Source: an uncultured bacterium
GTDB lineage: Bacteria; Cyanobacteriota; Vampirovibrionia; Gastranaerophilales; Gastranaerophilaceae
DNA: 64,000 nt
Reading direction: 5' to 3'
Assembly: GCA_947428835.1 (NCBI GenBank)
Contig: CANENE010000002.1
Location: 16,901 to 80,900, forward strand
Of the stretch, positions 11,427 through 16,236 are shown in pieces. A program made the position numbers and the translations under genes. Under the pieces are notes generated by a model that worked only from the letters and a program-made list of their open reading frames with translations, was not told the origin of the DNA and made no database searches. How positions within the stretch are numbered: position 1 is the first letter of the stretch; every line of letters begins with the position of its first letter.

Positions 11427-12944
11427 TTAGTCTTTATTCGGGCTAAAATATTGACAGCCGTTCCATACAAGGATATCGTTTCCTGAAATTTGACATTTGC
11501 CATTTAAACAATCTAATGTCCCATCAGGGCAAAGGGTGAAATTAGAACAATTCTGACATGTTTTTAAAGTCAGCCCCTTGGTTTTTAACTTGTATGCTAT
11601 GTCATTTAATGCATCATACATTCTAAGATGCGAATCTGTTCTTATAAACTTGCCGCCCTCTCTAAAAACTACTTTTCTCATGCCATCTTCTGAAACAAGG
11701 TCCAATTTGCATACAAAATCTTTTTTGCCATTGTTTGCAACAGCGCTTATTGTTGCGGAATTTATATTTTCTTCTTCGTATTTTCCTTCGATGATGGAGC
11801 GCATTGTAAGATTGTTAATTAAAATTTTGATTTTTTGCCAGCTTAGACAAAGGGGATAAAAGCCAAGCCAAAACACTTCGCTTATATTCATTTTAGACAC
11901 ATTTACGGCAACAATCAAATTAAGAAGTGCAAACAATATAAGAATAGCAGTCAATGTTTTAACAATCATTGTGTGACTGATTATAGCGATTGCAACAATA
12001 GCTGCAAATGCAAAAATCACAACAAGAGCATTTGGTTTTAAAAGAAATAATACAAATTCTTTGAAAGAATTGCTTTTAAATATAAGCAGGGGAAAATATC
12101 TTAAAAAAAGCGATATTTTATTTTTAATGGATGGGGAAGAAAAATCATAGTTTTTAACATCAATTGCAGAAATTATATACGGTGAATATGTCGATTTGAT
12201 GTTATTTGAAGCAAGGTCATATGAAAATTCCAAAGCTGAATCCTTATCTTCAAGTCCGACATAGCCCATTTTTTCAAGTACATCTGAAGTTATTACAACA
12301 TTTCCTTCATCAATTAAGAAAGGAAGCTCAAACATAGAGCGGACAATATTATTTGTTCTGTTTAAATATTTTAAATAAGAAGCTAAAATTGAATTTTTAA
12401 TTTTTTTGGCAAAACTGTCCTTATTATTTAAAGGAACTTTCGAACCTATATAAACGCCTGAATCTAATACGGTTTTGTTTATGTTTTCCAGGTACTTTTC
12501 GCCAACAATTCTATCTGCATCTAAGAAAATATAACAATCAAATTCTTTTTCCGGAATAAATTTGTTAACCAAAAGATTAATTGCTTTGTCTTTTGAAAAA
12601 AAGTCGGGATTTTTGATATTATGAAATTTTGCGCCCATTGCAAAATCTCTGTCGGGTGTTGTGTCGTTTTGTGCTTTTTCAAAGACAACATGGACTTCAT
12701 AATCTTCTTTGTCGTATGTTTGATTGTTTAAAATGTCAAGCAGCTTATCAAGGTTTTTATCGGATAAATTGGCATAAACAATGACGCAAAGCCTTTTTTT
12801 ATCCAAATTTATACTTCTTGTCTTTTCATTTATTTCAAAGTATTTATCAATATCTTTAGCTTTAATGAAAAAAGACAGCCTATAAAAACCATATATTAAA
12901 AGATAAACAAACAGTACTATAAATAAAATATCTGCTACTATCAT
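11427..12944 (-). CDS. Membrane glycosyltransferase (GT2-like) with a Cys-rich C-terminal domain
   Basis: N-terminal TM, GT-A-like region (CVIVYANLSD..., FLDADRIV DxD), central TM bundle and a C-terminal domain with 8 Cys (CQNCSNFTLCPDGTLDCLNGKC...CQYF). Confidence 0.6.
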   Translation of the reverse strand: MIVADILFIVLFVYLLIYGFYRLSFFIKAKDIDKYFEINEKTRSINLDKKRLCVIVYANLSDKNLDKLLDILNNQTYDKEDYEVHVVFEKAQNDTTPDRDFAMGAKFHNIKNPDFFSKDKAINLLVNKFIPEKEFDCYIFLDADRIVGEKYLENINKTVLDSGVYIGSKVPLNNKDSFAKKIKNSILASYLKYLNRTNNIVRSMFELPFLIDEGNVVITSDVLEKMGYVGLEDKDSALEFSYDLASNNIKSTYSPYIISAIDVKNYDFSSPSIKNKISLFLRYFPLLIFKSNSFKEFVLFLLKPNALVVIFAFAAIVAIAIISHTMIVKTLTAILILFALLNLIVAVNVSKMNISEVFWLGFYPLCLSWQKIKILINNLTMRSIIEGKYEEENINSATISAVANNGKKDFVCKLDLVSEDGMRKVVFREGGKFIRTDSHLRMYDALNDIAYKLKTKGLTLKTCQNCSNFTLCPDGTLDCLNGKCQISGNDILVWNGCQYFSPNKD

Positions 12945-13014: not shown

Positions 13015-13749
13015 GTGTTAAATTTTTTGGGTCAATTAGTATTAAATTTTACCCAAGCGGCAAAATATACCTTAAAAGGTAATGTGCGCTTAAGTTCTGT
13101 TATAAATCAAATTGCTGCAATAGGATTTGATTCTCTTGCTATTTGTTTGTCTGTGGTATTTATATCGGCTGCAGTTATCGCTCTTCAAGTAAGCGAGCAA
13201 TTTTTAATGTCAGGAGGCGATAGCTATATAGGAGGCTTTTTAACGGTTGCTTTAATCAGAGAGATAGCTCCCGGGTTTGCAGCATTGGCGCTTGCGGCAA
13301 GAAGCGGAACGGCAATAACAGCACAAGTTGCAAATATGCAGGTAACAAATCAAATTGATGCCATTGATGTTTTAAAAGTTGATTCTATCGGATATTATTT
13401 TGCACCAAGAATTATTGCAGGAGCAATCAGTGTTTTTTGTATTGTGCTTTTGGCGGAATTAATCGGGGTTTTGGGCGGATGCCTTGTTTCTTATTTTACA
13501 ATAGGGCTTCATCCCATAAGATATTTTAATTCTGTTTGGCTGATGCTTGTTATGAAAGATATATGGATAAGCCTTTTTAAAGGTTTAATTTTTGGGGGCC
13601 TTATAGCGCTTGTTGCTTCAACTGTCGGATATAACACAAAAGGCGGTGCCAAAAATGTCGGAGAATCCACCACAAAAGCAGCAATATATTGCACAATTTA
13701 TATTCTTGTTGCTGATTTAATTATAGATATACTTTTTTATATGGGTTAA
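13015..13749 (+). CDS. mlaE: MlaE/YrbE-type lipid ABC transporter permease
   Basis: [38 protein letters not shown] matches the MlaE signature. GTG start. Confidence 0.8.
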
Positions 13750-13985
13750 GCTAAATTTTGATGAAATGTTCTTGAAATAACGTCATCTTGCTGTTCTTTT
13801 GTAAGCTTGATAAAGTTTACTGCATACCCTGAAACGCGTACTGTAAGCTGCGGATATTTTTCAGGATGTGCTTGAGCATCAAGCAGAGTTTCTTTATTGA
13901 ATACATTAACATTTAAGTGATGACCGCCTTTTTCAACGTAACCGTCTAAAAGATTAATTAAATTTTCTTCTTGTTGAGTTGTCAT
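13746..13985 (-). CDS. Stand-alone glycyl-radical domain protein (equivalent to the PflB C-terminus, GrcA-like)
   Basis: GGHHLNVNV...[32 protein letters not shown] contains the RVSGYAV glycyl radical motif. Own ATG preceded by AAAGGAG. Confidence 0.85.
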
Positions 13986-14006
13986 AATTTATCACTCCTT
14001 TAAAAA

Positions 14007-16049
14007 CTATTTTATACTTCCGACACAGCAGCCTTCATCAAGCTGAATATCAAGGTCGCCCATAAATACTTCATCTTTTCCTAATGCGTTTGGAACAATT
14101 GAAAAAGTATTTGAAATACCATCTTGTGCATCATCAAACGGAAGCTTGGCGACGGATGCTAAAGAAGCAACAGCTCCATTTGTGTCGCGGCCATGCATTG
14201 GGTTTGCCCCCGGCGCCAATGGAATTCCTTCTTTTCTTCCATCCGGAGTGTTACCTGTTTTTTTGCCGTATACAACATTAGATGTAATAGTTAAAATTGA
14301 CATTGTAGGAATTGAATTTCTATATGTATAATGTTTTCTAATCATGGCCATAAATTTTCTTACAATATTTACGGCAAGTGTATCGACTCTGTCGTCGTTG
14401 TTTCCGTATTTTGGGTAATCGCCTTCAATTTCATAATCTACAACAATGCCATTTTCATCTCTTATTGTTTTTACTTTTGCGTATTTAATCGCAGAAAGTG
14501 AATCGGCAACGACGGATAGTCCTGCAATTCCTGTTGCAAAATATCTTTTAACGTCTCTATCATGAAGTGCCATTTGAGAGCGCTCATAAGCATATTTATC
14601 ATGCATATAATGAATTATATTTAATGTATTTACATACAAACCTGCAAGCCATTCCATCATATCTGTGTATTTTTCCATGACTTCATCAAAATCCAGATAC
14701 TCGCTTGTTACAGGGCGATATTTTGGACCTATTTGTTCTTTTAATTTTTCATCGATGCCGCCATTTATCGCATAAAGGAGGCATTTTGCAAGATTAGCTC
14801 TTGCTCCAAAAAATTGCATTTCTTTACCTACGACCATAGATGAAACACAGCAGGCAATAGCATAATCGTCCCCGTGGGTTGCTCTCATAAGGTCATCATT
14901 TTCATATTGAACGGATGAAGTTTTAATTGAGATGTGAGCTGCGTATTGCTTGAAATTATGCGGTAATTTTGTTGACCAAAGGACTGTCATATTGGGTTCA
15001 GGTGCAGTTCCAAGGTTTTCTAAGGTATGAAGATATCTAAATGAATTTTTGGTAACCAATGGTCTTCCATCAATTCCGACACCTGCAATAGATTCGGTTA
15101 CCCAAGTAGGGTCTCCTGAAAACAATGAATTATATTCAGGAGTCCTTGCAAATTTAACAAGTCTTAATTTCATAATGAAATGGTCAATCATTTCCTGTGC
15201 TTGGGATTCTGTAATGATACCTCTGTCTAAATCTCTTTGAATATAGATATCAAGAAATGTAGAAGTGCGCCCGATTGACATTGCGGCGCCATTTTGCTCT
15301 TTAACTGCCGAAAGATAACCAAAATACAACCACTGGATTGCCTCTTTAGCATTTTGGGCAGGTTTTGAGATATCAAATCCATATATTTCGCCAAGAACCT
15401 TCATTTGTTGAAGGGCATCAATTTGATCCGCTATTTCTTCTTTGAGTTGGATTTTATCAGGAGTCATCTCTCCATCTAATGAAGAGTGCTGCGCTTTTTT
15501 ATCTTCAATTAATCTATCTATCCCATATAAAGCAACACGCCTATAGTCGCCTATAATTCTTCCTCTGCCATAGGCATCAGGGAGCCCTGTTAAAATTGCA
15601 GCATGACGGGCTTTTTTCATTTCGGGAGTGTAGCAATCGAAAACACCTTGGTTGTGGGTTTTTCTATATTTTGTAAAAATCTCCGTTACATCCGTATCAA
15701 CACTGTAACCATATGATTTGCAGCTTGTCTGCGCCATTCTTATGCCGCCAAATGGCTGCAGGGAGCGCTTTAGCGGTTTATCTGTCTGCAATCCTACAAT
15801 GGTTTCTAAATTTTTATCAATATAACCTGCGCCATGGGAAGTTATAGAGGATATTATTTTTGTATCCATATCTACAACGCCGCCATTGTTTCTTTCTTGT
15901 TTAAATAAATCCAGGCATTTATTCCAAAGTTCAACAGTTGCTTTGGTTGGTCCTTCTAAAAAGCTGCTGTCGCCTTCATATGGTGTATAATTTTTTTGTA
16001 TAAAATCTCGAACATCTATTTCTGTTTGCCATTTTCCGGGTTTAAACAC
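14007..16049 (-). CDS. pflB: Pyruvate formate-lyase, catalytic part lacking the glycyl-radical domain
   Basis: Collinear with PflB from [15 protein letters not shown] through the active-site ACCVS to [12 protein letters not shown]. It then gains a unique 20-aa tail and a TAG stop. GTG start with AAGGAGA RBS. Confidence 0.9.
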
Positions 16050-16236
16050 AATAATTCTTCTCCTTTATATCCAATTTAATATCTAGCTGATTTCAATATT
16101 ATATTTTAGCATAAACAAATAATCATGGGTAAGCATGGCCAAAGCAAAAAAATCTTTATCTAATCTTTATAAAAAAATAAAAAATATATGATAGTATAAT
16201 TATAATAATTGGTTTTTAGTTGAGGAGTAGAAATTT

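Follow-up and report, generated by a model that had tools for sequence, protein, structure and literature searches.

Pyruvate formate-lyase (PFL) is central to anaerobic fermentation and is a textbook glycyl-radical enzyme. To our knowledge, it has always been described as one chain, and the small protein GrcA as an emergency spare part. Here, we analyzed a PFL that is divided over two genes, a truncated catalytic core and a separate glycyl-radical subunit, grcA3, in a stretch of 64,000 nucleotides (nt), hereafter the window (contig CANENE010000002.1, positions 16,901 to 80,900, assembly GCA_947428835.1). The DNA comes from an uncultured bacterium of the Gastranaerophilales, which are non-photosynthetic relatives of cyanobacteria. 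The features of the locus, in window positions, are the following.

16060..16066, minus strand: Shine-Dalgarno sequence AAAGGAG before the GTG start of the core, seen directly in the sequence.
14007..16049, minus strand: PFL catalytic core gene, 680 amino acids plus TAG stop, without glycyl-radical domain (from the listing of open reading frames).
14847..14852, minus strand: codons of the catalytic cysteine pair, Cys400/Cys401 in IACCVSS, equivalent to C418/C419 of E. coli (computed position and collinear PflB alignment).
14010..14069, minus strand: C-terminal extension of the core, 20 amino acids, absent from intact PflB.
13986..14009, minus strand: TAG stop of the core and 21-nt spacer, with a Shine-Dalgarno sequence AAAGGAG (13995-14001) and in-frame TGA and TAA.
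13746..13985, minus strand: grcA3, glycyl-radical subunit of 79 amino acids plus TAA stop (NF038360 match and PflB alignment).
13827..13829, minus strand: GGG codon for Gly53 (RVSGYAV), which is predicted to be the radical glycine and aligns with G734 of E. coli.

The core starts with a GTG codon, with AAAGGAG on its 5' side, and its stop codon is followed by a 21-nt spacer reading TTT TTA AAG GAG TGA TAA ATT on the minus strand. The small open reading frame (ORF) then runs from an ATG at 13985 to a stop codon at 13746-13748. Both ORFs share one frame and three different stops, TAG, TGA and TAA, stand between them. In the alignment with E. coli PflB, residues 2-661 of the core cover residues 14-679 and residues 6-77 of the small ORF cover residues 682-758, with Gly53 falling on G734 and RVSGYAV spanning residues 50-56 of the small protein; the two ORFs are 64% identical to PflB. 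The core thus matches PflB up to residue 679 and is then extended by a tail of 20 amino acids. The layout described in a first-pass annotation of this DNA (an ORF at 14007-16049 with IACCVSS, a TAG stop, 21 nt with AAAGGAG, then an ATG opening a 79-amino-acid ORF) was borne out by the sequence, as were the resumption of PflB homology with RVSGYAV in the small ORF and the total length of 759 amino acids, recomputed as 680 + 79. A promoter and terminator scan gave no terminator-like site between core and grcA3, its counts being those expected from shuffled sequence, and a repeat search around the junction gave nothing beyond short matches expected by chance, with no trace of a mobile cassette.

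Then, both products were assigned to protein families. The core alone scored 1133.6 bits against TIGR01255 (formate C-acetyltransferase), over profile positions 5-663 of 744, for a curated equivalog cut-off of 994.2 bits, and matched the Pfam PFL-like family with E = 7e-219. It has the adjacent catalytic cysteines of PflB (IACCVSS), but the RVSGYAV loop is found on the separate 79-amino-acid ORF instead of the same chain of about 760 residues. The small protein, which carries this glycyl-radical motif, scored 163.4 bits against NF038360 (GrcA3, cut-off 158), its residues 2-78 covering positions 2-78 of a profile of 78. It stayed below the cut-offs of GrcA (TIGR04365, 95.2 versus 170 bits, residues 18-78 on profile positions 66-126) and of GrcA2 (NF008341, 110 versus 145 bits). 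By profile matching, the small protein is thus assigned to the curated family GrcA3 (NF038360). A model of the fused ORFs was also computed with AlphaFold from a read-through translation, in which the three stops were set to Gly, using an alignment of relatives as input. This model adopted the PFL fold (mean predicted local distance difference test score, pLDDT, of 79.8; predicted template modeling score, pTM, of 0.85) and superposed on 2pfl_A with a template modeling (TM) score of 0.91 and a root mean square deviation of 2.8 A. Such a predicted fold is largely expected from the 64% identity and indicates only that the two pieces are jointly complete.

The remainder of the host assembly (1.8 Mb, 24 contigs, 97.7% complete) was examined for other genes of the system. 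No intact PFL was found in this 97.7% complete genome, where the sole other glycyl-radical match was NrdD, and grcA3 is present as a single copy, the one linked to the core. As no intact PFL is present, GrcA3 is the sole possible radical source of the core. The statement of the first-pass annotation that no pflA lies in the window was confirmed; the gene sits on another contig (C1) of the same genome, flanked by unrelated genes, and its product, the PFL activase PflA, scored 300.7 bits against TIGR02493 (cut-off 231.75). In the window, the truncated core immediately precedes grcA3 on this strand, with a gap of 21 nt; the gene 3' of grcA3 is a convergent MlaE gene, so that pflA is not directly downstream as in the usual arrangement described below. 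The pflA gene has moved away from the split locus in this genome.

The split layout was compared in related genomes. A truncated core was present in 35 of the 38 genomes of the genus, as open frames of 682-741 amino acids, and grcA3 was directly 3' of the core at 28 of the 30 genus loci examined, a comparison of orthologous loci that had been suggested in the first-pass annotation. The gaps between both genes ranged from 2 to 169 nt, one locus overlapping, with mixed frames and with TAA or TAG as stop codon. Such variation indicates that the split is old and maintained, and not one recent mutation. Two genomes (G043 and G051) had the core with grcA3 on another contig, and two others (G052 and G053) had neither gene. 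At the G043 locus (L117:2100-2530), the core was followed by about 450 nt without a long ORF, holding just overlapping ORFs of 55-60 amino acids, beyond which lies an unannotated ORF of 347 amino acids that is cut off by the locus boundary. Among 151 sampled genomes of the order, 43 had PFL, 36 of them in split and 7 in intact form. Many sister species carried a second grcA3 with no core nearby (L010-L012, L015, L017-L021 and L023); the stand-alone copy of L023 (4001-4243) adjoins a divergent Crp/Fnr-type regulator and a histidine kinase.

A wider search of species-representative genomes was then made with the small protein. The top 80 matches were small ORFs without exception, and a truncated core was found just upstream in 71 of them. 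They came from Gastranaerophilales and from many Clostridia, including Ruminococcus callidus ATCC 27760, R. albus KH2T6, Lachnospiraceae, Oscillospiraceae and Acutalibacteraceae. R. callidus ATCC 27760, whose genome is complete, and R. albus KH2T6 had the split PFL only; one Blautia genome had both a split and an intact copy. A PflA homologue was encoded in the fetched flanks of 53 of the 80 loci, always on the same strand and nearly always just 3' of grcA3, which points to core-grcA3-pflA as the usual operon. Among 400 evenly sampled Clostridia species, a PFL C-terminus was found in 235, and the GrcA3 cut-off was exceeded in 19, all in frames of 80-106 amino acids, with about four more small frames just below it; small stand-alone genes of the GrcA3 type were thus present in about 5% of the species sampled. 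Judging from their sequences, the radical domain is predicted to be a separate subunit in every case examined in the split lineage, including the cultured Ruminococcus species. In their records, four contigs that carry a split PFL of Gastranaerophilales or Clostridia type (L026, L029, L030 and L047) bear the labels Alphaproteobacteria, proteobacterium, Muribaculaceae or Bacteroidaceae, probably because these contigs of metagenome-assembled genomes were mis-binned or mislabelled.

These comparisons bear on whether the two genes are a broken pflB. Contigs independently assembled from SRR35046938, SRR32520746 and SRR29412558 (Logan) encoded the identical 79-amino-acid protein, and 171 nt over the junction matched the window at 100% in all three assemblies. 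The ratio of nonsynonymous to synonymous substitution rates (dN/dS), determined pairwise between the window and the genus with dS > 0.9, was 0.011-0.066 in grcA3 and, over the final 180 codons of the core, 0.014-0.058, showing strong purifying selection on both genes. An assembly or sequencing error, or a stop read-through or recoding yielding a single chain, would agree with both ORFs being in the same frame. But TAG, TGA and TAA all stand in frame between them, so that read-through cannot join them, the genes of the relatives lie in differing frames with gaps of 2-169 nt, and the junction is identical across three independent assemblies; the chance of such an error or recoding is practically negligible, and read-through or recoding was rejected as a candidate on account of the three in-frame stops and the other frames in relatives. 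Decay of pflB, with the core as a pseudogene remnant and the small ORF as a chance survivor or a spare part for another PFL, could be invoked because a stop codon breaks a gene that is single-chain in most bacteria, the PFL C-terminus found in 235 of the 400 Clostridia lying mostly within frames of 740-790 amino acids. It is made highly improbable by a dN/dS of 0.01-0.07 for both genes with saturated synonymous sites, by a layout kept in 35 of 38 genus genomes and in dozens of Clostridia, by the lack of any other PFL in this genome or in the complete genome of R. callidus, and by a Shine-Dalgarno sequence before each gene. The argument of the first-pass annotation that the clean arrangement speaks against a random frameshift gained from the identical junction in three assemblies, the conservation in the genus, the low dN/dS and the absence of an intact PFL. 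The split is natural and maintained, and is not a random frameshift.

The history of the split was addressed with a quick maximum-likelihood tree (657 core columns, 95 rows), for which intact PflB sequences were taken from genomes for comparison. All 72 split cores and one intact protein formed one clade, with a support of 99 in the Shimodaira-Hasegawa-like approximate likelihood ratio test (SH-aLRT), inside which the split cores of Gastranaerophilales grouped as a single subclade (SH-aLRT 98). Outside the split clade, the seven intact PflBs from this order made up a clade of their own (SH-aLRT 100). A single origin of the split was not rejected in the approximately unbiased test (p-AU 0.17); forcing all Gastranaerophilales PFLs together was marginally rejected (p-AU 0.042), a value to be taken with caution since this group was named after seeing the tree. 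The cores of the two phyla were 71-79% identical. That the split cores group together, away from the intact PflB found in other members of the Gastranaerophilales, suggests, as the simplest reading of these sequences, that the split operon was transferred between Clostridia and Gastranaerophilales. The intact protein inside the split clade, a PflB of 743 amino acids from a Clostridia genome (L140, G477:C31:3100-5900), branched at an unresolved fork and could be either a re-fusion or the nearest intact relative.

The most probable reading of the locus, to which we give a probability of roughly 0.85, is an obligate two-subunit PFL with GrcA3 as the subunit on which PflA installs the radical. That core and GrcA3 assemble, that GrcA3 receives the radical and that the split brings a benefit are inferences from the genes. 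The 680-residue core would carry the substrate site and the Cys-Cys pair, without the radical glycine. GrcA3, presumably encoded on the same transcript as the core and with a Shine-Dalgarno sequence of its own for translation, would contribute what PflB normally has at residues 682-759: a helix, the final strand of the barrel, the loop with Gly53 and the C-terminal helix. PflA, encoded on the other contig, would then put the radical on Gly53, and the docked pair would act like a single-chain PFL, the radical passing from Gly to Cys, to Cys and to pyruvate, with formate and acetyl-CoA as products. After oxygen cleavage, only the small subunit might have to be replaced; alternatively, the benefit may be an easier access of PflA. 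Several points weigh against this two-subunit enzyme. An artificial split of the E. coli enzyme (PFL 1-695 with YfiD 61-127) was poorly activated, with 2.7 versus 15.9 uM radical (PMC8683613), so that splits are not automatically functional. Besides, the GrcA3 part of the fused model is of moderate confidence only and the core tail has none (pLDDT < 50), and the window tail has two cysteines (Cys673/Cys674) for a genus consensus of three to four.

Another role could be considered for the core, namely radical-independent or regulatory, with GrcA3 acting alone or with another partner. NCBIfam indeed calls GrcA3 "autonomous", and stand-alone grcA3 copies occur in relatives. Against this, the core has kept the Cys-Cys pair and scores above the formate C-acetyltransferase equivalog cut-off, grcA3 usually lies between core and pflA, and in the four genomes checked both genes were either present together (G043 and G051) or both missing (G052 and G053), which makes this role very unlikely. 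The purpose of the two-subunit PFL is a distinct matter. The small subunit may be a consumable, swapped after oxygen cleavage at Gly53 to spare resynthesis of the 680-residue core, a plausible rationale, put forward in the first-pass annotation, that is compatible with a two-subunit enzyme as it concerns why the split exists. Oxygen-cleaved PFL is rescued by E. coli GrcA (PMC13450708, PMC8683613), the NCBIfam family name refers to a radical "fix" cofactor, and most sister species have a second stand-alone grcA3, that of L023 lying next to the divergent Crp/Fnr-type regulator. However, only one grcA3 is found in the host genome, and these bacteria live in the gut as strict anaerobes. Activation could instead be the step that benefits, as a free domain may reach PflA without flipping out of the barrel, or the split could be neutral and merely inherited. 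Repair is accordingly retained as a tentative explanation, at somewhat less than even odds.

The core of the two-subunit PFL ends in a tail bearing cysteines. In intact PflBs, ...ALGKD is joined to NLxxLLDGY by about seven residues, and the TTQQEE found at the start of GrcA3 is the counterpart of this linker. Hence, the VFMGD... tail of the core is an addition, and no Cys-bearing extension was present in the linkers of intact PflB. The tail had been called unique in the first-pass annotation; this is wrong, since it is conserved among the split PFLs of the genus and of the Clostridia loci, with a VFxGDxD pattern followed by a Cys motif, and reads VFxGDIEVDLDCxxGACxxPTLFEGLD in other lineages. 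The window tail is the shortest form, and the window GrcA3 is without the extra Cys tail of some sister species. Some lineages combine a short core tail with a separate protein, about 55-80 amino acids long, encoded between core and grcA3; such a third small gene was found at L073:3686-3988 and in about 30 further Clostridia loci (e.g., L037, L053 and L085). In its N-terminal half, this protein is similar to the first helix and strand of GrcA3 (hhalign probability 92.8%, E = 4e-7), and it ends in the Cys motif of the fused tails, of the DCxxxGAC(C)QPTE type (probability 86.5%, E = 4.6e-6). An NCBIfam scan of the core tail and of the Clostridial mini-ORF returned no family. At six genus loci (L109, L113, L121, L122, L125 and L128), GrcA3 itself had an extra Cys-rich tail (GCC, CGAC, CGC or CNCGC); by eye, no clear link was seen in the genus between the Cys count of the core tail and a Cys tail on GrcA3. 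The AlphaFold model gave the core tail no usable position, its pLDDT being below 50.

A zinc site stands beside the glycyl-radical domain in class III ribonucleotide reductase, which is suggested here as an analogue. By this analogy, the Cys-bearing extension might form a metal-binding or redox-sensitive clamp controlling docking and exchange of the radical subunit, an idea that we consider unlikely at present. The equivalent of such a clamp in relatives may be the separate Cys-motif protein encoded between the genes, or the Cys tails on GrcA3.

On the other side of grcA3, the stop of the gene (minus strand) overlaps by 4 nt, at window 13746-13749, the stop of the convergent MlaE permease gene (13015-13749, plus strand). 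No terminator-like site was found between the grcA3 and MlaE stops, and the three Logan contigs are arranged alike. Farther on, at 11427-12944 (minus strand), an ORF of 505 amino acids without Pfam match has hydrophobic stretches and a Cys-rich C-terminus (CQNCSNFTLCPDGTLDCLNGKCQ...).

The split PFL was then set against known systems. With E. coli PflB and PflA (2PFL, 1H16; TIGR01255, TIGR02493), it shares collinear ORFs, the Cys-Cys pair, RVSGYAV and a PflA equivalog in the genome. It differs in that the window enzyme is predicted to be two polypeptides, that the core has an extra 20-residue Cys tail and that pflA is unlinked. Like GrcA/YfiD (6OWR; TIGR04365) and Y06I of phage T4, GrcA3 is a small free-standing homologue of the PFL C-terminus, residues 68-127 of GrcA aligning with residues 19-78 of the window protein, and it presumably docks into a PFL body that is without its own radical domain. 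Unlike GrcA, it is without the disordered N-terminus of 60 residues and has a helix that corresponds to PflB 682-695; as its partner core is truncated at the gene level, GrcA3 is not a back-up for an intact enzyme. The NF038360 entry, "autonomous glycyl radical cofactor GrcA3", includes the window protein, and the genus and Clostridia relatives pass its cut-off as well. The name covers the small protein only, and no obligate partnership with a truncated core was seen in it. The engineered E. coli pair of tPFL (1-695) and truncYfiD (61-127) is similar in that a body lacking the final strand and the Gly loop is complemented in trans (Andorfer et al. 2021, PMC8683613). The natural split differs from it in lying about 14 residues earlier, with the preceding helix on the small subunit and a tail added to the core.

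The best matches to the core in the PDB were 38la and 38lb, both entitled "Formate acetyltransferase" (687 and 739 residues; 1168.8 and 1131.3 bits). The chain of 38la ends in ...LGKED, the exact split point, and that of 38lb continues with ...LGKSGNVMFGECDM, a tail of the same VFxGD type as the core tail. No small-subunit chain of either entry was among the PDB matches to GrcA3. Both are absent from a fold library ending on 2026-04-08 and were therefore released later, and a literature search returned no relevant paper for the two codes. In a full-text literature search, no paper describing a natural split PFL was found and the name GrcA3 was not met; a 2026 review names YfiD/GrcA as the only such small spare-part protein (PMC13450708).

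The layout is labelled in databases, through GrcA3, and is common to many gut and rumen species, the split lineage covering a sizeable share of gut and rumen Clostridia. For annotation, split cores should not be called pseudogenes or "partial", and the small gene should be named a PFL subunit. The two-subunit enzyme would offer a natural system in which to study the access of the activase to the radical domain, the docking of this domain into the core and its exchange after oxygen damage, and it may serve as a template for engineered spare parts of other oxygen-sensitive radical enzymes. If the proposal of a Cys clamp were true, it would be a PFL with a regulated, exchangeable protein cofactor.

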